Origin: Bacteroidota bacterium
Lineage (GTDB): Bacteria > Bacteroidota > Bacteroidia > 2-12-FULL-35-15
DNA: 55,161 nt
Reading direction: 5' to 3'
Assembly: GCA_043742725.1 (NCBI GenBank)
Contig: JAYTXX010000029.1
Span: 1 to 55,161 of the forward strand
Translations under genes and position numbers: made by a program
The notes under the pieces: generated by a model
Seen by the model: the letters and a program-made list of their open reading frames with translations, nothing else
What the model was told of the DNA's origin: nothing
The model's database searches: none
Shown: one piece after another, positions 4,729 through 43,823 of the stretch
How positions within the stretch are numbered: position 1 is the first letter of the stretch
Layout of the letters: every line of letters starts with the position of its first letter

Positions 4729-7038
4729 ATGACAAAAAGGTTTAAAAGCAAAAAGGAAGGAAAGAAAAAAAGTTATTTTTTCGAAGAAATATTACGTGTG
4801 TTATCAAAATCGTCAAGCAAAGCACTTAACTACAAACAAATTGCTGCCGAACTAAATGTTACAGACCACTCGCAACGGTTATTAATAAACAACATATTGC
4901 TTGAGCTAAAAGCAAGCGATGCTGTTTCGGAACCCGAACGAGGAAAATTTAAAATCAAAAACACCGATGTTTTTATCACAGGAAAGGTGGATATGACTGG
5001 TTCTGGGAACGCTTATGTGGTTTCAGAAGAATTGGAAAACGATGTTCTTATCATTGCTAAAAAAACAGCAACTGCCATGCATGGCGATTTGGTTAAAGTA
5101 AAACTTTATCAAAAACGAAACGGAAAACAAGAAGGAGAAATTGTTGAAATAATTGAACGTGCTAAATCCGAATTTGTTGGAACCATACAACTCTCTCCAC
5201 GCTTTGCTTTTTTGGTGCCAAGCAACAACCGAATGAATGTGGACATTTACATTCCTCTTGAAAAATTAAATGGCGCAAAAAATGGACAAAAAGCAATTGC
5301 AAAAATTACTCAATATCCCAAAAATGGCGTCAATCCTATTGGAGAAATTATAGAAGTGCTTGGAAATGCAGGAGAAAACAATACCGAAATGCATGCCATA
5401 CTTGCCGAATACGGCTTGCCATATCATTTTCCAAAAGATGTTGAGCGTGCGGCAGATTTAATTCCAATTGAAATTACGAAAGATGAAATTGCCAAAAGGC
5501 GTGATTTCAGAGAAATTACAACTTTTACAATTGACCCGGTAGATGCAAAAGATTTTGATGATGCGCTTTCTATTCAAAAATTAAAAAATGGAAATTGGGA
5601 AATTGGCGTTCACATTGCCGATGTGAGTCATTATGTAAAACCCGAATCAATGATTGATAAAGAAGGTTTTTCTCGTGCAACTTCTGTTTACCTTGTGGAT
5701 AGAGTTGTTCCAATGCTTCCCGAAGTTTTATCAAACAATGTTTGCTCCTTACGACCGAATGAAGAAAAACTATGTTTCTCTGCTGTGTTTGAAATGACAG
5801 ATGATGCAGAGGTGCTTAACGAATGGTTTGGGCGCACAATTATTAATTCCGACAGACGATTTACGTATGAAGAAGCGCAAGAAATTATTGAAACCGAAAA
5901 AGGTGATTTTAAAAATGAGGTTCTAACACTCAATCGTTTGGCAAAAATTTTAAGAGCAAATCGTTTTAAAAAAGGAAGCATTGCTTTTGAAAAAATGGAA
6001 GTGAAATTTCATTTAGATGAAGTTGGAAATCCAACAGGTGTGTATTTTAAAATTGCAAAAGATTCCAATCAATTGATTGAAGATTTTATGTTGTTGGCAA
6101 ATCGTAAAGTAGCTGAATTTATAGGCAACCAAAAAGAAAAAAAGGAAGCTACTCAACAATTAAAAGAAAAAGGAAAAAGAGATTTTGTATATCGTGTTCA
6201 CGACAAACCAAACCCTGATAAACTTGCCAGTTTTGCAGAGTTTGTTGGAAAATTTGGATATAAATTAAATATACAAAACGAAAAAACAGTTGCCAATTCT
6301 ATGAATAATTTACTGAAAGAAGTAAACGAAAAAAAAGAAGCTGGAGTAATTGAGTTGCTTGCTATACGAACAATGGCAAAAGCCGTTTACACCACAAAAA
6401 ATATTGGGCATTATGGATTGGGTTTTGAATACTACACCCATTTTACTTCGCCCATTCGCAGATATCCAGATGTGATGGTTCATCGTTTGTTGCAACATTA
6501 TTTAGATGGTGGAAAAAGCCCCGATGTTGAAAAATTAGAAGAGCAATGCAAACATTCATCAGACATGGAAAAACTTGCGGCTGATGCAGAGCGCTCATCT
6601 ATTAAATATAAACAAGTGCAATTTTTACAAGATAAAATAGGACAAGAATTTGATGGAAAAATTTCGGGAGTTACCGAGTGGGGAATATTTGTGGAAATTA
6701 CAGAGAATCACTGCGAAGGAATGATTCGTTTGCGTGATTTACAAGATGACAATTACTTTTTTGATGAAGACAACTATTGTTTGCGCGGTCGAAAATATGG
6801 AAAAGTACTTACGCTTGGCGATGAAGTGCGCATTGAAGTAAAACGTGCTGATTTAGTAAAAAAACAATTGGATTTTATTTTGATTGAAACAATTGATAAG
6901 TCTGAAAAAAACAAATCCACATCAAAAAAAGAAGAAACAAAAATTTCTCCTAAATCGAGTAAAATTAACAACATGAAAAATTCAAAAAATAATTCTTCAA
7001 ATAAAAATATTGATGAAGAGTGGGGATTTGAAATTTAA
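4729..7038 (+). CDS. rnr: Ribonuclease R
   Basis: 769 aa. RNB catalytic region (TFTIDPVDAKDFDDALS, HIADVSHYV, YLVDRVVPMLP), a C-terminal S1 domain (GKISGVTEWGIFVEI) and a Lys/Ser-rich tail. Confidence 0.95.
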   Translation: MTKRFKSKKEGKKKSYFFEEILRVLSKSSSKALNYKQIAAELNVTDHSQRLLINNILLELKASDAVSEPERGKFKIKNTDVFITGKVDMTGSGNAYVVSEELENDVLIIAKKTATAMHGDLVKVKLYQKRNGKQEGEIVEIIERAKSEFVGTIQLSPRFAFLVPSNNRMNVDIYIPLEKLNGAKNGQKAIAKITQYPKNGVNPIGEIIEVLGNAGENNTEMHAILAEYGLPYHFPKDVERAADLIPIEITKDEIAKRRDFREITTFTIDPVDAKDFDDALSIQKLKNGNWEIGVHIADVSHYVKPESMIDKEGFSRATSVYLVDRVVPMLPEVLSNNVCSLRPNEEKLCFSAVFEMTDDAEVLNEWFGRTIINSDRRFTYEEAQEIIETEKGDFKNEVLTLNRLAKILRANRFKKGSIAFEKMEVKFHLDEVGNPTGVYFKIAKDSNQLIEDFMLLANRKVAEFIGNQKEKKEATQQLKEKGKRDFVYRVHDKPNPDKLASFAEFVGKFGYKLNIQNEKTVANSMNNLLKEVNEKKEAGVIELLAIRTMAKAVYTTKNIGHYGLGFEYYTHFTSPIRRYPDVMVHRLLQHYLDGGKSPDVEKLEEQCKHSSDMEKLAADAERSSIKYKQVQFLQDKIGQEFDGKISGVTEWGIFVEITENHCEGMIRLRDLQDDNYFFDEDNYCLRGRKYGKVLTLGDEVRIEVKRADLVKKQLDFILIETIDKSEKNKSTSKKEETKISPKSSKINNMKNSKNNSSNKNIDEEWGFEI

Positions 7039-28182: not shown

Positions 28183-29079
28183 TTAATTCAATATAGATAA
28201 CATTCTATCATACATGTTTTTGAAAATATTGAAGTTGTAACTATCTTGTTCACCAAATGATACTATTCCCATAAATGTATCCATGCTTAAATTATTATTA
28301 GATAAAGTATGTATTGGGACTTGAAGTAAAACGATAAAACCTATTGTTCTGTTATCCTTATTAAATCGATCAAATTCTTTTATGTTTTGTTGTATCCATT
28401 CTGTCGTTTGTTGTTGAAGAATATTTTTCCGAGTTAATACATCGTTTACAACAATTGTACTATGTAATGAATTTATTAGTTTTCCAATTGAAAATGCAAT
28501 TATTCCTCTACCCTTTTCATCCGATTCATAACGTGATTTTAGTTGAGAATGCGCTTTTTCAATATTTCTAACAATTTGCTTCACACTAGAAGGTCTTTTA
28601 CATTCAATATAAAAATTTCCATTATTTGTTTTATATTCTAAATCTCCTTCATCATTAAAAATAATATCGTATCCGCCACGAATAAGTCGAGAACCTATTA
28701 TTAATTCAAATCCAATATCTCTTGGTTGATTAGAATTTTTTGATGGATTTTCTTCATCAATATTTATTGGTCCTTCAATATATCTGCCTACTCTTTTTAT
28801 TAATTCATCGTTAACCTGAATTTTCATTAACCCTTGAGTAATTTCTATAAATTCTGTTAAGTCAAAAAAAGAATTTGAATATTCTCTGTACTCATCAGTC
28901 CCCTTTAATTTATTTAACTGTCCAACTTCAATTATTTTTATGTAATTCTCTAATTTTTTCTGATAGGAATTAATCCTATTATATGAATTAATTCCATTTT
29001 GATTTAACCATACTATCCCACTTTTAGAATCATTAAGTTGTTTATATAACCCTTCTAGCTCTTCGTTATTTATTTCCAT
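28183..29079 (-). CDS. Hypothetical protein with a PD-(D/E)xK nuclease-like motif
   Basis: 298 aa. DIGFELIIGSRL...GDLEYKTNNGNFYIECKRP fits the E...D...ExK restriction-endonuclease-fold signature. This is motif-level evidence only. Confidence 0.65.
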   Translation of the reverse strand: MEINNEELEGLYKQLNDSKSGIVWLNQNGINSYNRINSYQKKLENYIKIIEVGQLNKLKGTDEYREYSNSFFDLTEFIEITQGLMKIQVNDELIKRVGRYIEGPINIDEENPSKNSNQPRDIGFELIIGSRLIRGGYDIIFNDEGDLEYKTNNGNFYIECKRPSSVKQIVRNIEKAHSQLKSRYESDEKGRGIIAFSIGKLINSLHSTIVVNDVLTRKNILQQQTTEWIQQNIKEFDRFNKDNRTIGFIVLLQVPIHTLSNNNLSMDTFMGIVSFGEQDSYNFNIFKNMYDRMLSILN

Positions 29080-34696: not shown

Positions 34697-35494
34697 TTAA
34701 AACACATTCTGAATTTTCAAACTGTTCTCACTTGCCAACAAATAATAATTTCCATTCAACAGTTGAAAAAATTCTATTCCTACACAACCTATTAATCCTG
34801 CTGTTGCAACCATTGTTGGCGAACCCGCAATTGTTGCTGTTACAGTCGTTACACCACCAACCATGCCACCAATAGCAATGTAATTACTATACACCACTTT
34901 AGTTTTTCCATTGATAGTAGCATTTACAGGAAAGTAACTCTTTTTAGAAATGCTATAAGCATAGTCCGACAAAATACTTGCAGTATTCACAAATCGAAAG
35001 TGTGTTGCACCTTCTGGAGCACTTACAAAATCTGAAGTATTAAAATCAGGAACACTCAACACAGTTTCATTTCTTCCCGCATTAGCTGTATAAGTAAAAA
35101 TCGAATTAAAAACAGAACCAAACATTACACCAAACGTAATGTTATAGTCATTCAAAACTCCTGCATTGTTTACTATCTCTATCCCTCTTGCGCCACGCAC
35201 TCCTGCTCCATTTTCACATACTGCTCTAAACAATTTTGTCAATCGTGCCACAACATTTCTTCCTCCAAAAATTGTTATCAACTCCGCTATGCAAACACGA
35301 AAAGCTTTTGCCACATGTGCACTTCCTCCAAACTCCGACATGTTTTCACGTGTCCGTTTAAATGCTGGATCTTTTTCTATTTTTTCTTTCGATACTCCGC
35401 TTGGGGTTTTAACCAAGTCTTTTCCATTGTTTTCGTAAAAACTTAATCCGCCAACTTTTCCTTTGATACGGATTATTCCTTTTTGATAAGCCAT
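34697..35494 (-). CDS. Hypothetical 265-aa protein, compositionally atypical
   Basis: MAYQKGIIRIKGKVGGLSFYENNGKDLVKTPSGVSKEKI... with a Gly/Ala/Val/Thr-rich C-terminal half. It has no signal peptide and no motif I can name. G+C is clearly above that of its neighbours. Confidence 0.7.
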   Translation of the reverse strand: MAYQKGIIRIKGKVGGLSFYENNGKDLVKTPSGVSKEKIEKDPAFKRTRENMSEFGGSAHVAKAFRVCIAELITIFGGRNVVARLTKLFRAVCENGAGVRGARGIEIVNNAGVLNDYNITFGVMFGSVFNSIFTYTANAGRNETVLSVPDFNTSDFVSAPEGATHFRFVNTASILSDYAYSISKKSYFPVNATINGKTKVVYSNYIAIGGMVGGVTTVTATIAGSPTMVATAGLIGCVGIEFFQLLNGNYYLLASENSLKIQNVF

Positions 35495-36069: not shown

Positions 36070-38118
36070 TTAGTGGTTTATGATAATTTTTTTTGATACA
36101 ATTCCTTGTTCGGTTTTTATTTGTATGAAATAAATACCATTGGGCTGATTGCTTAAATCAATTTCTGATTTTTGATTTCTGATTTTTTTAGAAAATATTT
36201 TTTCACCAGTAGAGCTAATGATGCTGTATTCATATTCTTTCTTTATTGTCGCGATTGTAACTATTCCAGATGTTGGATTAGGGAAAATAATATCTTTTTC
36301 TTCTTTATTAACTTCAGCTACATTAGTGACACTTAAACCAATTAACGAACGCTTTGCTACAGCAAAGTAAGTGGCTGCAAAAATGTAGGAACCTTGCATT
36401 GCCATTGCTACAACCGTCTTATTCAGTCCATCAGACACCCACGTGCTTCCATAATTTTCAGACAGAAACAGACCAGATTCTGTTCCCGCAAAAATATTCG
36501 AACCGTATATGAGTAAAGATCGGACAGCGCCACCAGAGAGTCCCAATAGTGTCCAACTTAAACCATTATTATCAGATAAAAAAAGCCCCCCTTGAGTTCC
36601 AGCAAAAATATTTGTTCCGTCCACAACGATTGAATAGATTTTAAAATTTGTTAACCCAGAAGTATTAAGTGGTGTCCAATTGAGTCCCGAATCAGTTGAT
36701 AAAAAAATCCCACCTCCATCTGTTCCTGCAAAAATATTTGATCCGCTAACAGCCAAAGACCGAACGTAGAGAGAGTTGCCAGACAAGCCATTATTTATTG
36801 CTGTCCAGGAGGATCCCAAATTGTTTGAAAAAAAAATTCCAAGACCACCAGTGCCGGCATAAATAGAAGTACCGACTGTTGCCAATGAAAATACATTAGA
36901 TGCTATACCATTGTTTACGTCTATCCAACTATTTCCTCCGTTCGTGGACAAGGCGACACCAGATTCTGTTCCCGCAAAAATATTTCCCCCATTTGTAGTT
37001 AAGGAATAGATAGAATGAAGGTATCCTAAATTTGATAAGCCAGAATTAATTGTGTGCCAACTTATTGCTGTATCATTTGACGAACCTATACCATTATAAA
37101 GAGTTCCCGCAAGAATATTTGTTCCAAAAGTAGCCAAAGACGTTATAAAATTATCGACAAAACCTGTTCCAGCAGAAGACCAAGTATTTCCTGTGTCTTT
37201 AGATACATAAACACTATTATTAATAGCGTTCGTTGGTACTGCAAAAACAGTTGTTCCGTTTGTACCTAACGAACCTATTCGCATATCTAGCAAACCTGTG
37301 TTAGCTGCTTGCCAGTTGCCACCATTATTATTCGATAAATATATACCGCCCCCATTGGTACCAGCAAAAATATTTGAACCAATAGTAGTAAGAGAGTATA
37401 TGTCATTATTGTTTAACCCATTGTTAACAGGTGTCCAAGTTGTCCCATTGTTGGATACATAAACACCACCTTGTGTTCCAGCAAAAATATTTGCACCATT
37501 TATTACAATACTTCTAACATCGTGATTAGTTAATCCCGAATTAACTTGTGTCCATAAAGTACCATTATTATATGATACATAAATGCCACTACCATTGTTG
37601 CCTGCAAAAATGCTTGATCCTCCTGCAGCCAAACAATTAATTGCTGTAGCCCCAAGTCCATTATTCACCCCCAACCAACTGGTTCCGTTATTAGTAGATA
37701 AAAAAACACCCGAGGAGGAGGTTCCTGCAAAAATGTTTGAGCCATTAATAGCAAGTGATGTTACATAGAGATTTGTTAAACCGATGTTCACTGCCACCCA
37801 ACTTGCACCATTGTTACTTGAGAAAAATACGCCTCCTCCTCCCGTTCCCACAAAAATGTTTGAGCCACTAGTAGCTATTGCAGTAACAGTTAAATTAGTT
37901 AAACCATTATTTACAATGGCCCAGTATTCACCATTATCGTCAGTTCGAAAAACACCATTACCATATGAACCTATAAAGGTACTTGTACTATTAGATGCCG
38001 TTGAATAATAATTTAAACAACAAGGAGGTAAACTTGTTGTTGCGGTCGTCCATTGAGCATTTAAATTAATTGAAAAAAATGTTACAGCAATAAGGCACAA
38101 TATTTTTTTAGATTTCAT
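36070..38118 (-). CDS. Secreted Asp-box-like beta-propeller repeat protein with a T9SS type-A C-terminal sorting domain
   Basis: Signal peptide, then about 12 repeats of GSNIFAGT.GGG.F.S.N.G.SW..VN.GL.N. The C-terminus reads IIFPNPTSGIVTIAT...NGIYFIQIKTEQGIVSKKIIINH. Confidence 0.85.
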   Translation of the reverse strand: MKSKKILCLIAVTFFSINLNAQWTTATTSLPPCCLNYYSTASNSTSTFIGSYGNGVFRTDDNGEYWAIVNNGLTNLTVTAIATSGSNIFVGTGGGGVFFSSNNGASWVAVNIGLTNLYVTSLAINGSNIFAGTSSSGVFLSTNNGTSWLGVNNGLGATAINCLAAGGSSIFAGNNGSGIYVSYNNGTLWTQVNSGLTNHDVRSIVINGANIFAGTQGGVYVSNNGTTWTPVNNGLNNNDIYSLTTIGSNIFAGTNGGGIYLSNNNGGNWQAANTGLLDMRIGSLGTNGTTVFAVPTNAINNSVYVSKDTGNTWSSAGTGFVDNFITSLATFGTNILAGTLYNGIGSSNDTAISWHTINSGLSNLGYLHSIYSLTTNGGNIFAGTESGVALSTNGGNSWIDVNNGIASNVFSLATVGTSIYAGTGGLGIFFSNNLGSSWTAINNGLSGNSLYVRSLAVSGSNIFAGTDGGGIFLSTDSGLNWTPLNTSGLTNFKIYSIVVDGTNIFAGTQGGLFLSDNNGLSWTLLGLSGGAVRSLLIYGSNIFAGTESGLFLSENYGSTWVSDGLNKTVVAMAMQGSYIFAATYFAVAKRSLIGLSVTNVAEVNKEEKDIIFPNPTSGIVTIATIKKEYEYSIISSTGEKIFSKKIRNQKSEIDLSNQPNGIYFIQIKTEQGIVSKKIIINH

Positions 38119-38145
38119 AGATTTAAAATTTTGTAATTGATTAAT

Positions 38146-38643
38146 TTATTTTTTCGTTTTGTTATAACATTCGAATTTCTTAAATAGTTTTTTGAATATT
38201 TTAACTGAAATCCTTATACTTCCTTTCTCTATGTCCATTGCTCTTTTAAATTCCTCTATTTCTATTTTATAAGCTTCTTTAATATTAAAATATTCATCAT
38301 ATTCTATCCAAATTAATATATCCCATTCGCAATTTTTGATGGAAGGTATTCTTGTAATTTTTGAATTGGTTCGTCCGCTTGGTCGGCAGGCTTTAATCTG
38401 ATAATACATGTTATTGAAAAAAAAATCGTATCCTTTTTTGACAACACTATTTTTTTTCATATCTGTGCAAAATGCTTCATCACTCATGCCTACAATTTTT
38501 TTAGCGGCATCTAATTCGGCAAGGTATCCTGTTATAGTTGGAGCATTGCCAATGTTTTTTTGACAGGTCAAAGCAAGTGTAACTAATTCATTTCTTAATT
38601 CAGCCAAAGATTTGGTTGGATATTTTGATAAGTCTATTCCCAT
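38146..38643 (-). CDS. Small hypothetical protein with a PD-(D/E)xK-like core
   Basis: 165 aa. KKGYDFFFNNMYYQIKACR (D...QxK) is preceded by a helical segment containing acidic residues. Assignment is motif-level only. Confidence 0.6.
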   Translation of the reverse strand: MGIDLSKYPTKSLAELRNELVTLALTCQKNIGNAPTITGYLAELDAAKKIVGMSDEAFCTDMKKNSVVKKGYDFFFNNMYYQIKACRPSGRTNSKITRIPSIKNCEWDILIWIEYDEYFNIKEAYKIEIEEFKRAMDIEKGSIRISVKIFKKLFKKFECYNKTKK

Positions 38644-38667
38644 AATTTTTTAGATCTTAATTTTCCA

Positions 38668-38675
38668 CAAACATA
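38668..38675 (-). promoter_or_regulatory. Candidate -7 promoter box (reverse complement TAtgTTTG)
   Basis: CAAACATA on the + strand, 24 nt upstream of the minus-strand ATG at 38643. Confidence 0.4.
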
Positions 38676-38750
38676 TTTTCTCCATACATCATTTCCTAAA
38701 ACCCTTTCATTCCTTTTTTTAATTTTGGCTTAAAAATGCAGACGAAACAA

Positions 38751-38758
38751 TACATTTG
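38751..38758 (+). promoter_or_regulatory. Candidate -7 promoter box (TAcaTTTG)
   Basis: TAnnTTTG match 39 nt upstream of ATG 38798. It overlaps the TTG start at 38756 given in the ORF track, so that start is unlikely. Confidence 0.4.
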
Positions 38759-38797
38759 TTCTATCAAACCAACAACCCTATACTGTATTTAGTAAAT

Positions 38798-41206
38798 ATG
38801 ATTAATAAACTATTAGCCAAAACGAAAAAAACATATTCGTTTCCAATTCAATATTCAAAAGATTGTGAAACACTATCACACGCTATTTTTAATAGGACCA
38901 ATTGCTCCATCAGCCCAACTACTTTAAAAAGATTATATGGCTTTGCTAAAGTGAAAGACAAACCTTCAAAATTTACTCTTAACACACTTTCAACTTATTG
39001 TGGGTATGCTGATTGGACAGATTTTATTACAAATAGCGTTAATAAAAATGCTTCTAAAAAGAAACCGTTAAGTAAATGGGATGAACTAAAAACAAATTCT
39101 AAAACAACAAGTAATTATACATTAGATGCGTTAAAAAGTAATTCAGGATTGGCTTACAATCAAACTATAAAAAGAAAATTTGTTTATTCTTTTATTGATG
39201 AATTTCTTGAATCAAAAGCCCTGGCCACTTGTTTAATTGCAAATGGAGGGATGGGTAAATCAATTTCAATAGCCCAGGTTGTTGATGACTACTGGCTTTC
39301 AACCTCACCAAAGCATAAAGATGATATTGTTTGGTTTATTTCCGGAACAAATTTAAGAGCCTTGTTCGCCAAACAGCTTGATTTAGATAGTTGGTTTCTT
39401 GAACTCTTTTCGCTTACCAAAGGATTAGACTATAGAAATTATTTTACCAACAACCCTAAAGAAAGAAAAGGTCGAATTCTATTGATTATAGATGCACTCG
39501 ATGAATTGGTAATTAAATCGGATAATCTGGACGATCTGTTCAGAAAATTAATAGAACTTATTGGTTCGAATACAGATACACCTTGGTTCAAAGTAATACT
39601 TACAACAAGAACTTCAACATTTGAACGGTTGATTCACATTATTAAAGATTACCCGGGAATAACTAAACACTTCTACGGAGTTAACTTTGACAATTTAATT
39701 GGATCACCAAGCAACGTACCCCTTTTAAATGATGAAGAAATACTTCAAATTATTGGTATAATTAATTCTACCCCTGAATTTGTTTCATCAACTATTGATT
39801 TCGCATCTTTAAACCCATCACTCCGGCTTCAAATAGCGCATCCATATTATTTGCAATTGTTTATTCAATCTTTTATTGACAAAACAAATAATATACATTC
39901 ACATCACGATATTCTGAATGAATTTATGGCTCACCGTATTTACAAAGGAAAATATGGTTTTGAAAAAACAGAGATATTCAACGCCTTGCTTGTAAATACT
40001 GACTATGGTAGAAAAGCAACTACTACTAAAAAATCTGAAATTGCAGATTTAGTTAATCAGTACAGTAGGGCTTATAAGGAATTGCTATCATTTGGTATTC
40101 TTAAAGAAAGCTACATTCCTAATAAATTTAAGGTATATCAAACATTCGTAAAATTTGGCCACGACACACTATTTGAGTTTTTGATAGCCAAACATTGGAT
40201 AATGGAATTCAAAACCTTTAGCCATGCGCTACTATTAAATGTAACAAAAGCATATTCAGGAAATGAAAAACGAATTGATATTGTTAAACACATTGCGTTA
40301 ATGGGATTAGAAGAAGGTAAGTTTGATGAATTACAACACATTTATGAATTGAAGCTTGAAGAATACGAGTTAAACAGATTATCACATGTTTTAGGAATAC
40401 AGCTTCGTGAAAATAGAAATGCCCAAAAAATACTTATGCCGTTGTGGGCTAAAAACAAATCTGCACAGATCTACTTTTTTGAACGGTTTGTTGATCTCGA
40501 TAATCTAAGCGGTTATTATGGCAAAGCCATTTCTATTTATTTGAAAAATAAAAACAAAAAAGAGGCGCAGATTTTTGGCAGTTGTTTATTGTTTATGAAG
40601 GCTTTTCTCACAAAGGATGAATTGTTATTTAGTACAATGGTTACAAAACTAAGTACGTTTCCATTTGATCTTACCATTCACCCTTTTCCGTTGGGCAGAC
40701 AGATGGCTTGTCAAATCATAGCTTACGAGAAATTTCATCAAAGGAGGTTGGGTGCTAACATTAAAAATCAAATTCTAAGAATCGCTAAATCGGTGGCACA
40801 TAAAAAGGATTTTGTAACGGGTTTCCCTGTCGGTTACCATTTTCATGTGATGGAAGGTTTGTTTTTTGTTGATCAATACGATTTGATAATTATTCTATTT
40901 GAATCAATAGAAGCCGATTTTCCAGAAATAGACGATTACAAACAAACTTGGTTATACAAAATGATGCAGGTTTATTATAGCGTGGCACTCAAAATGGTTG
41001 GCCAGAAAGTAAAAGGAACTAATTTATTTAAAACTGTAAATTTTGAACATGTGTTTAAAGATGTTCCTTGGTATAAAAACTATTTCTTGCTTCAGTATCT
41101 CAAAGCAAAACATATTATAGTTGCTGATGCCAGAGAAAAAACAACGGTAAAAAAACAAATGGGTACGATATCCGAAAAACTTGGATTTTATTTTGGTGAA
41201 AATTAA
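38798..41206 (+). CDS. HTH-like N-terminal domain + NACHT/STAND P-loop NTPase + C-terminal helical repeat region
   Basis: N-terminus reads SISPTTLKRLYGFAK...LNTLSTYCGYADWTDFI. Walker A is LIANGGMGKSISIAQV ([AG]x4GKS). Walker B is RILLIIDALDEL (NACHT-type hhhhDxLDE). It is followed by about 500 aa of helical sequence. Confidence 0.85.
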   Translation: MINKLLAKTKKTYSFPIQYSKDCETLSHAIFNRTNCSISPTTLKRLYGFAKVKDKPSKFTLNTLSTYCGYADWTDFITNSVNKNASKKKPLSKWDELKTNSKTTSNYTLDALKSNSGLAYNQTIKRKFVYSFIDEFLESKALATCLIANGGMGKSISIAQVVDDYWLSTSPKHKDDIVWFISGTNLRALFAKQLDLDSWFLELFSLTKGLDYRNYFTNNPKERKGRILLIIDALDELVIKSDNLDDLFRKLIELIGSNTDTPWFKVILTTRTSTFERLIHIIKDYPGITKHFYGVNFDNLIGSPSNVPLLNDEEILQIIGIINSTPEFVSSTIDFASLNPSLRLQIAHPYYLQLFIQSFIDKTNNIHSHHDILNEFMAHRIYKGKYGFEKTEIFNALLVNTDYGRKATTTKKSEIADLVNQYSRAYKELLSFGILKESYIPNKFKVYQTFVKFGHDTLFEFLIAKHWIMEFKTFSHALLLNVTKAYSGNEKRIDIVKHIALMGLEEGKFDELQHIYELKLEEYELNRLSHVLGIQLRENRNAQKILMPLWAKNKSAQIYFFERFVDLDNLSGYYGKAISIYLKNKNKKEAQIFGSCLLFMKAFLTKDELLFSTMVTKLSTFPFDLTIHPFPLGRQMACQIIAYEKFHQRRLGANIKNQILRIAKSVAHKKDFVTGFPVGYHFHVMEGLFFVDQYDLIIILFESIEADFPEIDDYKQTWLYKMMQVYYSVALKMVGQKVKGTNLFKTVNFEHVFKDVPWYKNYFLLQYLKAKHIIVADAREKTTVKKQMGTISEKLGFYFGEN

Positions 41207-41528
41207 ATAATCGCAGTTAAAAGCGGAAGTCAATAGTATAAAATAAATATTTGGTTGAAGCTATAAACATGTTATACAAACTATTATTTGTTAATTAATC
41301 TGTAGCTTATTAATATTCAAATCTGTTACGTATTGTATGTCCCAGCATCAATAACACAACCTTATATTACTTCAGTGCGGCTGACGTGCACAAAAAGAGC
41401 AGGGCAGAGCGTCAATAAAAAGTACTGTGTACTTTTTTAGCGATGAGCCAGTCTGCTGGGCAAGCGTTTTACAGCCCTGAAGCGTAAGCATTTTGCGGGA
41501 AAAGCAAAAGCTTGGCGTTGGTTTTTGT

Positions 41529-41578
41529 GCTTGAGCCTCCACACATACTGGCTCAAATGTGTACCACACATTTGCCCT
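41529..41578. repeat. Type-II structured module, copy 1
   Basis: GCTTGAGCCTCCACACATACTGGCTCAAATGTGTACCACACATTTGCCCT, identical at 49 of 50 positions to 42137-42186. Contains the stem TTGAGCC/GGCTCAA and an ATGTGT segment that can pair with either of two ACACAT segments. Confidence 0.75.
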
Positions 41579-41696
41579 ATTTCTTTTGTTTCAAGACAGG
41601 ACAAACATCCTGTGGATGTTTGAGCCAGACCGAGCGAATGCTTTCTATTATTCCAATAGAAAAGAAAAACATCAAAACACATCAAAGAATAAAATT

Positions 41697-41810
41697 AAAT
41701 TGAATAACAGGCGCGTAAGCCTGAAAAGGTTGCGGGGGCTTGCCAGCTTGTGCGTTAGCCGATGACCTTTTCTTGAATTTTTGTTTCTTTTGTTTCAAGA
41801 CAAAAGAAAA
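41697..41810. repeat. Type-I structured module, copy A
   Basis: AAATTGAATAAC, hairpin CAGGC-GCGTAA-GCCTG, helix GAAAAGGT...ACCTTTTC enclosing a GC-rich insert, then CTTGAA...TTCAAG / TTCTTTTGT...ACAAAAGAA. Confidence 0.75.
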
Positions 41811-41904
41811 CAGATCGTTTTCGTGTTCGATTTTTTCTAACTTTTTTATCAAAAAAGTAAGTTTCAAAAGAAAAATATTATTTCCAACAACAAAGAACAA
41901 AACT

Positions 41905-42017
41905 AAATTGAATAACAGGCGCGTAAGCCTGAAAGCATACGGAGCAGCGTCCGCCTGTGTGTTGACCGATTATGCTTTCTTGAATTTTTGATTCTTTTGT
42001 TTCAAGACAAAAGAAAA
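41905..42017. repeat. Type-I structured module, copy B (diverged, with compensated helix)
   Basis: Same hairpin CAGGC-GCGTAA-GCCTG. The second helix is replaced by GAAAGCATA...TATGCTTTC. The terminal CTTGAATTTTTGATTCTTTTGTTTCAAGACAAAAGAAAA is the same as in copy A. Confidence 0.7.
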
Positions 42018-42045
42018 AAGAATTACTATTACAAACCACAAATAT

Positions 42046-42186
42046 AAATTGAATAGTGGGCGCATTAGCCCAAAGCGGTAGCCCGTGCTGAACTTGCCGA
42101 AGCAGAGAAACGCTAACCTGTGCCCCGACCAATCATGCTTGAGCCTCCACACATGCTGGCTCAAATGTGTACCACACATTTGCCCT
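42046..42186. repeat. Hybrid module C (type-I head with compensated hairpin, type-II tail = copy 2)
   Basis: AAATTGAATAG, then hairpin TGGGC-GCATTA-GCCCA, then an insert homologous to copy B (CCTGTGCCCCGACCAATCATGCTT), then the type-II core at 42137-42186. Confidence 0.7.
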
Positions 42187-42307
42187 GTTTATTTCTTCAT
42201 CAAGAAAAGGCAAAAACACATTACTTGTTCTCGATACATTTTTCTGAAAAAGAAAAACACTCGAACAGACAAAGCACAAAAACATTTTAATTTAAAAGCA
42301 CAAAACC

Positions 42308-42425
42308 AAATTGAATAACGGGCGCGTAAGCCTGAAAAGGTAGCGGGGGCTTGCCTGCTTGTGCGTTAGCCGATGACCTTTTCTTGAATTTTTGTTTCTT
42401 TTGTTTCAAGACAAAAGAAAAAGAA
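42308..42425. repeat. Type-I structured module, copy D
   Basis: Differs from copy A at 3 positions over the conserved core 42308-42420 (by eye). These are CAGGC to CGGGC (giving a G-T wobble) and a paired T-to-A / A-to-T change in GGTTGC...GCCAGC versus GGTAGC...GCCTGC. Confidence 0.75.
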
Positions 42426-42550
42426 AAACCTTTCATAAAGAAAAAAAGTTATTTGATTTTCTGCTTGAGCCTTCACAACTTGAAACCTGAAATATGAAAC
42501 TTGAAACTCTTCATTCCTAATTAATTTTTCCTTCATCGCTTACCCTACTT

Positions 42551-42591
42551 TTAAGGCACGCTTAAGGCACTCTACTCCCAGTCTACTCCCA
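42551..42591. repeat. Two adjacent short tandem direct repeats
   Basis: TTAAGGCAC occurs twice (42551-42559 and 42562-42570), immediately followed by TCTACTCCCA twice (42571-42580 and 42582-42591). Confidence 0.6.
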
Positions 42592-42656
42592 CTCTGTTAG
42601 TACAATGTTAATAACCCAAAATCACTAACTACAAACTATTAATTATTCATTCTTAA

Positions 42657-43823
42657 TTATCCATTTTCCATTCCCGTTAGTGCTTGCTCCAAATCAGCAA
42701 TCAACAAATCAGCATCTTCCAAACCAATATAAAGCCTAATCATATTCCATGGCAAAGGATTTTCAAAACTTTTACTTGCAGCCAAAGCACATAGCGGAAA
42801 CGCTAATGATTCATAACTACCCCAAGAGGTCGCCATCAAAAAGCGTTTCAGCGAATTACAAAAGCGTTCAACCTCCTCCACATCTTTAGCATCTAATACA
42901 ATCGAAAGCAAGCCACCGCCCTGTTTCATTTGTTTTCTTGCCAAATCCAATTGAGTATTCCTTGATGAAAAAGGATAATACACTTGTTTTATTTTAAGGT
43001 GTTTTTCTGCAAAATCAGCCACTTTCTTTGCCGACTCCGCACTTCTATTCACTCGTAGCTCAAGTGTTCTCAATCCCCTCAAAACCATTGCCGCATCCAT
43101 TGCCGAAACACAACCACCTATTGTCATATATTCTTCTGCCATCATTTTCATAATACGTTCTCTCTTTCCACACACCACACCACATACCACATCGCTGTGT
43201 CCGTTTAAATATTTTGTACCCGAATGTAGCACTAAGTCCGCACCCAACAGTATTGGACTTTGGTTCAGTGGCGAGTTGTAGCTATTGTCCACAATCGTTA
43301 CAATACCTTTTTGCCTTGCCAACTTCGTTATTGCTTCAATATCTTGTAGCTCAAAAGTCAATGAATTTGGGCTTTCCAAGTATATCAACTTTGTATTTGT
43401 CTGTATCGCTTTTTCAAAATTACTTGCCTCTCCCCCATCTACAAATGTGTGCGTAACACCATATTTTACAAGGTATTTGCTTAAAAGATTGTTCGTCCAG
43501 CTATATGGTTTTTGTACACACACAACGTGGTCTCCCGCCTTCACAACACTCATCACAGCAGCAGCCACAGCCCCACTTCCACTCGAAAACACAAGCGCGT
43601 CTTCCGCCCCTTCAAGTGCTGCCAATTTCTTTCGAAGTATTGCCACTGTTGGATTGTAGCCTCTTGTATAAAAGGGTGTTTCAAGCTCTCTGGTTAATTT
43701 TTCGCGCATCTCTGCAACCGTTTTAAAGCAATAATTGCTCGACTGAAAAATGGGTGGAGATACCGAACCATAGTATTCTTCACGCTCTTCGCCAAGATGA
43801 TTTAAAATGTATGAAATATCCAT
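42657..43823 (-). CDS. Cys/Met-metabolism PLP-dependent enzyme (cystathionine beta-lyase / gamma-synthase family)
   Basis: 388 aa. YTRGYNPT, VFSSGSGA, and the PLP-lysine context HSGTKYLNGHSDVVCG. Confidence 0.9.
   Translation of the reverse strand: MDISYILNHLGEEREEYYGSVSPPIFQSSNYCFKTVAEMREKLTRELETPFYTRGYNPTVAILRKKLAALEGAEDALVFSSGSGAVAAAVMSVVKAGDHVVCVQKPYSWTNNLLSKYLVKYGVTHTFVDGGEASNFEKAIQTNTKLIYLESPNSLTFELQDIEAITKLARQKGIVTIVDNSYNSPLNQSPILLGADLVLHSGTKYLNGHSDVVCGVVCGKRERIMKMMAEEYMTIGGCVSAMDAAMVLRGLRTLELRVNRSAESAKKVADFAEKHLKIKQVYYPFSSRNTQLDLARKQMKQGGGLLSIVLDAKDVEEVERFCNSLKRFLMATSWGSYESLAFPLCALAASKSFENPLPWNMIRLYIGLEDADLLIADLEQALTGMENG

Follow-up and report, generated by a model that had tools for sequence, protein, structure and literature searches.

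The window analysed here is a 55,161-nucleotide stretch of contig JAYTXX010000029.1 (assembly GCA_043742725.1, Bacteroidota bacterium). At 38146-41206 it carries two divergent genes, one for a 165-aa protein with a nuclease-like motif and the other for an 802-aa protein with a NACHT-type NTPase domain, which a first-pass annotation made from the sequence had read as a candidate defence or signalling module. Comparison with relatives of both genes indicated that the two are independent and lie back to back by chance, and that the NACHT gene travels as a self-contained cassette whose family is associated with an upstream tandem repeat.

Organization of the locus

Our reading of the open reading frames (ORFs) agrees with the first-pass annotation in the coordinates of both genes and in the 154 bp that separate their start codons. 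The strings it had quoted are also present, namely SISPTTLKRLYGFAK...YCGYADWTDFI, LIANGGMGKS (residues 146-155) and LLIIDALDEL (residues 228-237) in the large protein and GYDF...YQIKACR in the small one. The following features were assigned.

38146-38643, minus strand: small ORF of 165 aa (ORF reading), a solitary PD-QxK endonuclease with a modelled BisI/PvuII-like fold and proposed catalytic residues E43, D73, Q82 and K84 (PADLOC, alignment, structure model, Foldseek)
38644-38702, no strand: intergenic part absent from the closest NACHT relative, L001 (blastn comparison)
38668-38675, minus strand: candidate -7 box of the small gene, TATGTTTG (consensus match, not enriched in the window)
38699-38713, plus strand: degenerate repeat copy AACCC-TTTC-ATTCC (compared with GTTCC-N4-GTTCC), candidate operator (four-region upstream alignment)
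38703-41215, plus strand: self-contained NACHT cassette, promoter region plus gene (blastn against L001)
38751-38758, plus strand: candidate -7 box of the NACHT gene, TACATTTG, 40 nt before the ATG
38756-41206, plus strand: NACHT ORF, 802 aa when read from ATG 38798
38798-39070, plus strand: conserved all-alpha N-terminal domain, residues 1-91, possibly an XRE-like helix-turn-helix (HTH) (conservation, structure model)
39173-39697, plus strand: NACHT nucleotide-binding domain, residues 126-300 (Pfam, motif reading)
39239-39262, plus strand: Walker A, ANGGMGKS, residues 148-155 (read directly)
39476-39505, plus strand: Walker B, ILLIIDALDE (read directly)
40145-41206, plus strand: variable helical TPR-like C-terminus, residues ~450-802, presumed sensor (12-19% identity to distant relatives)

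As homologues of the large protein begin with MI(N/D/E)KLL, its true start is ATG 38798 and not the TTG at 38756. TAnnTTTG boxes are found in the intergenic gap at 38668-38675 on the minus strand and at 38720-38727 and 38751-38758 on the plus strand, so that the boxes noted earlier, one on each strand, are indeed there. However, the motif occurs 105 times in the whole window against 103 expected and its presence thus carries no statistical weight; the boxes are plausibly well placed, but they are not evidence by themselves. The box at 38751-38758 is kept as TAnnTTT(G/A) in NACHT relatives.

The small protein is a predicted PD-QxK endonuclease

No Pfam or NCBIfam model matched the small protein. 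The PADLOC model mREase_II (Type II methyl-directed restriction enzyme) matched it with E=1.3e-6, over residues 61-129 only. A first search returned 8 relatives and a profile built from them more than 2,200, mostly of 140-145 aa, and in an alignment of 68 of these sequences E43, D73, Q82 and K84 were invariant, with Q82-I-K84 as a triplet. In the AlphaFold (AF2) model, which has a predicted confidence (pLDDT) of 87.8, helix 38-51 carries E43, D73 lies where strand 74-76 begins, and Q82-x-K84 falls within strand 79-86. Foldseek matched this model in the PDB to NhoI (E=7e-6), Eco15I (1.2e-5) and PvuII (1.1e-4), each with a probability of 1.0 and with TM-scores of only about 0.44-0.49; over the top matches to these enzymes the E-values ran from 7e-6 to 1e-3. 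A profile search of PDB sequences gave Eco15I at E=0.008, with YQIKA aligned to VQIKA and a WD-ILIWI strand also matched. In the BisI family the active site is formed by a helix glutamate, the aspartate of a (W/A)D pair and a Q(V/I)K triplet, as in NhoI and Eco15I (PMC11347163), and the E/D/QxK layout of the small protein agrees with it. The D...QxK nuclease core proposed from the sequence is therefore supported by the PADLOC match, the invariant residues, the model and the fold matches alike, and by these models the protein is a PD-QxK endonuclease whose fold and proposed catalytic residues can be taken as established.

BisI-family enzymes have no separate methyl-sensor domain, and PvuII is their closest classical enzyme (PMC11347163). 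Besides giving the best fold matches and sharing the arrangement of helix E, strand-start D and Q-(I/V)-K, these enzymes resemble the small protein in being small single-domain proteins of ~140-170 aa, and the BisI family also in being encoded by solitary genes, with neither a cognate methyltransferase nor a separate modification-sensor domain (PMC11347163). The small protein differs in having an extra N-terminal helix (residues 13-31) and a C-terminal tail; it belongs to a large uncharacterised family of its own that lacks a Pfam or NCBIfam model, and it shares only 17-24% identity with them. On sequence it appears distantly related to the BisI/PvuII enzymes, full membership not being established.

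The genomic neighbours of this family are heterogeneous. Their largest cluster is found at 8 of 77 loci, all on near-identical contigs, and the 104 immediate neighbours include a single DNA methyltransferase and no NACHT protein. Since there is no partner methyltransferase, the nuclease is expected to cut modified DNA, and by analogy it is probably a solitary modification-dependent restriction enzyme: a homodimeric PvuII/BisI-type nuclease that would cut modified (e.g. methylated) foreign DNA alone, as BisI-family enzymes do. No phage homologue was found in these searches. One homologue is located on a plasmid of Segatella copri, where it is annotated as "hypothetical protein" and lies among transposases. 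A 44%-identical homologue at ~6001-6459 of six metagenome contigs (L003-L008) is found in an apparent defence island, next to an N6/N4 DNA methyltransferase, a Schlafen AlbA_2 protein, a 1,192-aa TPR-OmpA-CHAT protein, two DUF5677 proteins and a PLD-family protein.

The large protein is a STAND NTPase of the NACHT clade

The Pfam NACHT model (PF05729) scored 21.3 bits on the 802-aa protein (E=2.6e-4), under its cut-off of 26.7, and no NCBIfam model matched. Within the family the same model was found in 39 of 57 members at E<=0.01, the best at 1.5e-6, and six members have a precomputed PF05729 match. The best Pfam matches of the family were NACHT, NPHP3_N and nSTAND, and none of its members matched MalT, NB-ARC, LuxR or SARP models. 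Residues G153 and K154 of Walker A, which follows the GxxxxGK[ST] pattern, are invariant among the 57 homologues, and LLIIDALDE (residues 228-236; family consensus LIIDGxDE) fits the NACHT signature hhhhD[GAS]hDE, as defined in the survey of bacterial NACHT (bNACHT) proteins (bioRxiv 10.1101/2022.07.19.500537). R271 sits within TTRTST. From its sequence, then, the 802-aa protein belongs with the NACHT-clade STAND NTPases, as the first-pass annotation had it.

Conservation falls along the protein: identity to distant relatives is 39% over residues 1-80, drops to 30% across the NTPase and reaches 12% over the final 180 residues. The ~500 aa of helical repeats proposed for the C-terminal part are only weakly supported, through TPR Pfam matches in 5 of 57 family members and weak profile matches to IFIT3 and the TPR sensor PH0952 in the PDB. 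A profile of the N-terminal domain retrieved 4,015 representative proteins (50%-identity clusters) at E<=0.001 and 2,304 at E<=1e-10, and nearly all full-length proteins among the top 150 measure 780-870 aa and carry the conserved domain at the N-terminus. By these searches the family is large, constant in architecture and mainly from Bacteroidota.

The pairing of the two genes is not conserved

On the NACHT side we compared 86 loci of relatives (~1.07 Mb), drawn from L001, L002, L009, L010, L169, L170, L173 and 80 genome loci, and, for the nuclease, 80 loci from the small-protein family, 0.44 Mb in total. Searching one genome per species with a 13-sequence alignment yielded 277 NACHT relatives, almost all from Chitinophaga and Mucilaginibacter. 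A homologue of the small protein was present in 0 of the 86 NACHT loci, the close relative L009 included, and a NACHT homologue in 0 of the 80 nuclease loci. The idea of a NACHT-plus-nuclease antiphage module thus falls on the co-occurrence comparison that had been proposed along with it: the two genes are independent, and their arrangement is not conserved.

The boundary between them is visible in the alignment with L001, whose NACHT protein is 88% identical. Blastn similarity (83% identity over 2517 nt) is confined to 38703-41215 of the window, that is, to the NACHT gene with 95 bp upstream and 9 bp downstream, and excludes the nuclease and its promoter. The divergent neighbour in L001 and in two further relatives, L173 (66%) and L170 (64%), is a gene for a 313-aa protein, split in L170, and the window copy lacks both this gene and the one for a 131-aa protein that its closest relatives also carry. 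The surroundings of these relatives are mobile, with integrase and AAA ATPase genes in L001 and FtsK-type genes in L001 and L170. Neither the 313-aa nor the 131-aa protein matched a Pfam or PADLOC model. The 313-aa gene lies at 6911-7852 in L001, at 2-211 in L173 and at 239-1209 in L170, and the 131-aa gene is located downstream of the NACHT gene in L001 (10424-10819) and L173 (2765-3160). We considered that such divergent neighbours might be swappable alternative effectors and rejected the idea, because the 313-, 131- and 142-aa neighbours match no Pfam or PADLOC model and are common only to related mobile elements.

Other contexts differ again. The divergent neighbour in L169 (69% identity) is a WG-repeat lipoprotein, and L002 (34%) lies near genes for cytochrome c and rpoBC. 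In Chitinophaga, a giant adhesin-like gene (>1,700 aa) is divergent upstream in 66 of 80 loci, and a 302-aa membrane protein whose core is that of a transglutaminase-like cysteine protease (PF01841, E=2e-5; L011-L074) is encoded on the same strand in 63 of 80, in most of these 22-113 bp downstream (median 34 bp), followed by ClC, KefF-like and KefC-like genes. The recurrent neighbours over the 80 genome loci are the adhesin, the transglutaminase-like protein, the ClC channel, KefF/KefC, Wzc and SusC. In Chitinophaga and Mucilaginibacter the family is divergent to cell-surface genes (the giant adhesin and Wzc/exopolysaccharide genes, respectively). The transglutaminase-like protein may be a conserved operon partner in Chitinophaga; neither the window nor the close NACHT relatives encode it.

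A tandem repeat is associated with the NACHT family

When the upstream regions of the NACHT genes from the window and from L001, L169 and L170 were aligned, a single conserved island, GTTCCTTTCGTTCC, stood out amid diverged sequence. Corresponding repeats were found upstream of L173 (GTTCCTTTTGTTCC), of the high-GC relative L002, which lies in another context (GTTCAAATAGTTCA, at -93), and of the Chitinophaga genes (GTTCATTTTGTTCA), often there as two clusters at ~-100 and ~-370. With the strict form GTTC(A/C)-N4-GTTC(A/C) on the plus strand, the 500 nt upstream of the NACHT genes gave 85 matches, distributed over 55 of 85 loci, where 0.44 were expected, and the remaining 2.09 Mb gave only 22. 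The motif lies at -77 to -97 in four contexts (L001/L170/L173, L169, L002 and Chitinophaga), and it travels with the NACHT gene on mobile elements. The copy in the window is AACCCTTTCATTCC. A loose form of the motif elsewhere in the window was found 3 times against 3.1 expected, and no local regulon was detected there. The simplest reading of this association is that the repeat would be an operator recognised by the N-terminal domain of the NACHT protein itself.

No part of the family is better conserved than the N-terminal domain, whose consensus is DCxxLSxxIxxxTxxxxSxTTLKRxxGFAxxxxxPSxxTLxTLxxYCGYxxWxxF. An AF2 model of residues 1-125 (pLDDT 82) shows six helices in a helical bundle, and the domain itself is a 90-aa helical domain and no enzyme. 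The named top Foldseek matches, at non-significant E-values, are mostly of the XRE/cI type (DdrO, TP901-1 CI, EspR, Stl and HTH_XRE proteins), and a PDB profile search with the domain returned nothing meaningful. The HTH-like N-terminus of the first-pass annotation is plausible in that XRE-type proteins head the Foldseek names, but no significant match was obtained with Pfam, hhalign or Foldseek; on the model, the label is reasonable but unproven.

Flanking DNA and the downstream repeat cluster

The surroundings are ordinary chromosome, with type IX secretion system (T9SS) BNR proteins, a cystathionine-type lyase, DMT and MnmG. The 802-aa protein gave no PADLOC match, and the ten flanking ORFs (~10 kb upstream, ~7 kb downstream) gave none to known defence models except one generic methyltransferase domain. 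Among five NACHT relatives PADLOC gave weak local PDC-M54A matches in two and one spurious Cas9 match. Over 33 ORFs of the window, single matches to PD-Lambda-2_B (E=2.4e-40), Nhi, AbiO and SduA lie more than 10 kb from the pair, and are probably generic domains, because the Pfam list includes PhoH, PIN_4 and RNB. Two ORFs on the minus strand, at 34697-35494 (265 aa) and 28183-29079 (298 aa), matched no Pfam or PADLOC model.

The gene at 36070-38118 (minus strand), 28 bp downstream of the nuclease gene and on the same strand, encodes 682 aa of BNR/sortilin-like repeats that carry a C-terminal T9SS sorting domain. On the contig of the nearest relative of the small protein (P0096, 65% identical), too, a gene of >407 aa follows on the same strand after 58 bp. 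Given this second case of a close same-strand gene, the nuclease and its downstream gene may be co-transcribed.

Downstream of the NACHT gene, the structured repeat cluster that the first-pass annotation had counted as part of the module is real: a non-coding, same-strand cluster of 1.3 kb at ~41500-42500, with three ~127-nt units, two 59-nt units containing the palindrome CAAATGTGTACCACACATTTG, and four to five AT-rich hairpins TTTCTTTTGTTTCAAGACAAAAGAAA. It is nevertheless an unrelated element, and the NACHT relatives do not share it. Its motifs occur nowhere else in the window, it folds modestly better than shuffled sequences, and Rfam gave no match over 38000-43000. A 22-nt direct repeat (86% identical; 41275-41296 and 42630-42651) brackets the cluster, which suggests that it is an insertion. 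The only match of the flanking DMT protein was to another assembly of this organism (100% identical), on a contig that ends inside the cluster, and no empty site for comparison was found through that match.

Discussion

Among regulators, the NACHT protein resembles AfsR and GutR in the order of its parts: a candidate DNA-binding domain at the N-terminus comes first, followed by a nucleotide-binding oligomerisation domain and then by TPR-like repeats. The MalT boxes offer a comparable example of repeated sites. AfsR itself combines an N-terminal DNA-binding SARP domain, a nucleotide-binding oligomerisation domain and TPRs, and it binds two direct repeats, the afs box (PMC10936776), which the tandem direct repeat upstream of the NACHT genes resembles. 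Unlike AfsR, GutR and MalT, however, the protein has an NTPase of the NACHT clade and not of the MalT or AP-ATPase/NB-ARC clades, and the sequence of its N-terminal domain shows no relationship to SARP/OmpR or LuxR domains; the likeness would be one of function, not of membership. The bNACHT proteins described by Kibby et al. ("Bacterial NLR-related proteins protect against phage") share its Walker A, its D[GAS]hDE Walker B and a layout in which an N-terminal output part is followed by the NACHT module and then by C-terminal repeats. As the bNACHT survey includes N-terminal HTH and transcription-regulatory "adaptor" domains (bioRxiv 10.1101/2022.07.19.500537), the architecture is of a kind already known. 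The present family differs from bNACHT proteins in lacking a PADLOC defence match and an enzymatic effector and in its core-like synteny in Chitinophaga; on sequence comparison it corresponds to no catalogued antiphage STAND family, and no phage test of any member was found in the literature searched.

We propose that the locus holds two independent genes, a solitary PD-QxK nuclease and a self-contained, autoregulated, DNA-binding NACHT switch, and we give this reading a probability of about 0.55. In such a switch the variable TPR-like C-terminus would sense a ligand, NTP-dependent oligomerisation of the NACHT domain would then gather the HTH-like N-terminal domains, and these would bind the tandem GTTC(A/C)-N4-GTTC(A/C) repeats, resulting in autoregulation and probably in control of other promoters too. 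For the NACHT protein, the role of STAND-type transcription regulator, which had been mentioned earlier as a fallback, is better supported than a defence module, since the tandem repeat is conserved upstream of the family genes.

Several observations weigh against this proposal. The window copy of the repeat keeps one good half-site, the first being lost exactly at the junction where homology with L001 begins (38703); as a consequence, the regulation of the NACHT gene in this genome may be altered. Most motif matches belong to Chitinophaga loci that are syntenic and share descent, which leaves few independent observations, from about three to four lineages, and generality is further limited by the Mucilaginibacter loci and L010, which are without the strict motif. 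The repeat could also be bound by another protein or be a promoter element. As for the N-terminal domain, 34 N-terminal fragments gave no Pfam HTH match and only scattered noise, hhalign against six XRE repressors (with approximate sequences) gave a probability of 1.7%, and the best Foldseek E-values, 1.9 in the PDB and 0.8 in BFVD, are not significant. On the nuclease side, the resemblance to BisI enzymes is remote (TM-scores of about 0.44-0.49, 17-24% identity), which leaves specificity and modification dependence unproven, and the P0096 relative has, 106 bp upstream, a divergent 40-aa gene fragment that could be the N-terminus of a NACHT protein. Finally, the integrase/FtsK elements on which close NACHT relatives lie and the fast diversification of the C-terminus would fit an antiviral role as well.

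That antiviral role can be stated as a rival, and we hold it to be rather unlikely: the NACHT protein would be a stand-alone antiphage NLR-like protein of the bNACHT type, with an N-terminal adaptor or effector that does not bind specific DNA, the nuclease being unrelated, and its C-terminal repeats would sense a phage protein and bring about oligomerisation and then growth arrest or a defence response. Its NACHT signature, tripartite layout and fast-evolving C-terminus would all be expected of such a protein, as would the carriage of the closest relatives as cargo of integrase/FtsK elements, the diversity of the family (2,304 clusters) and the adaptor or HTH domains at the N-terminus of other bNACHT proteins. 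Yet the family falls outside the PADLOC models apart from the weak PDC-M54A matches mentioned above, it has no enzymatic effector domain, and the flanking ORFs contain no defence genes. In at least 63 Chitinophaga genomes it occupies one conserved chromosomal context, unlike sporadic defence genes. In a census of STAND proteins, 198 of 589 clades qualified as defence-associated by their defence neighbours or defence effectors (PMC13581612), and by these criteria the present family would fall among the non-defence clades. A stand-alone antiphage protein would also leave the gene-linked tandem repeat unexplained.

The readings that tie the two genes together fare worse. In one, particular to this genome, the inserted NACHT regulator would control the divergent nuclease and the 682-aa T9SS BNR gene as a local operon, by way of the intergenic region that both sides share. 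The divergent arrangement, the ATTCC half-site that remains 66 nt from the start of the small gene, and the position of the family next to surface genes in Chitinophaga (giant adhesin) and Mucilaginibacter (Wzc/exopolysaccharide) are consistent with it, but the junction has removed the first half-site and the loose motif is not above chance elsewhere in the window, and we regard this reading as improbable. In the other, the NACHT protein would sense infection and activate the nuclease as a separate effector. Despite the divergent adjacency across 154 bp, the confirmed nuclease fold and the divergent gene fragment at the corresponding place on the P0096 contig, this two-gene module is largely refuted by the absent co-occurrence and is in our view the most improbable of the readings considered: the five closest NACHT relatives with readable flanks (L001, L170, L173, L169 and L009) have other neighbours, the homology with L001 leaves out the nuclease and its promoter, and a nuclease family of more than 2,200 members has no conserved partner.

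As the proposed pair is not a module, the locus should be kept out of defence-system catalogues as a pair. The nuclease family is large and unannotated, and may yield modification-dependent restriction enzymes that would be useful as epigenetic tools. For the NACHT (NLR-type) family we tentatively suggest, as a possibility on which we would not yet rely, that its members are ligand-gated, sequence-specific transcription factors that bind the gene-linked repeats through an undescribed HTH-like N-terminal domain. If so, they would be the equivalent in bacteria of CIITA-like "transcriptional NLRs", encoded by a core gene in Chitinophaga, next to the transglutaminase-like protein and the giant adhesin, and by a mobile, self-contained cassette elsewhere. 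With the gene-linked motif it can be asked directly, by experiment, if NACHT proteins of bacteria are able to serve as transcription factors and not as immune executioners.

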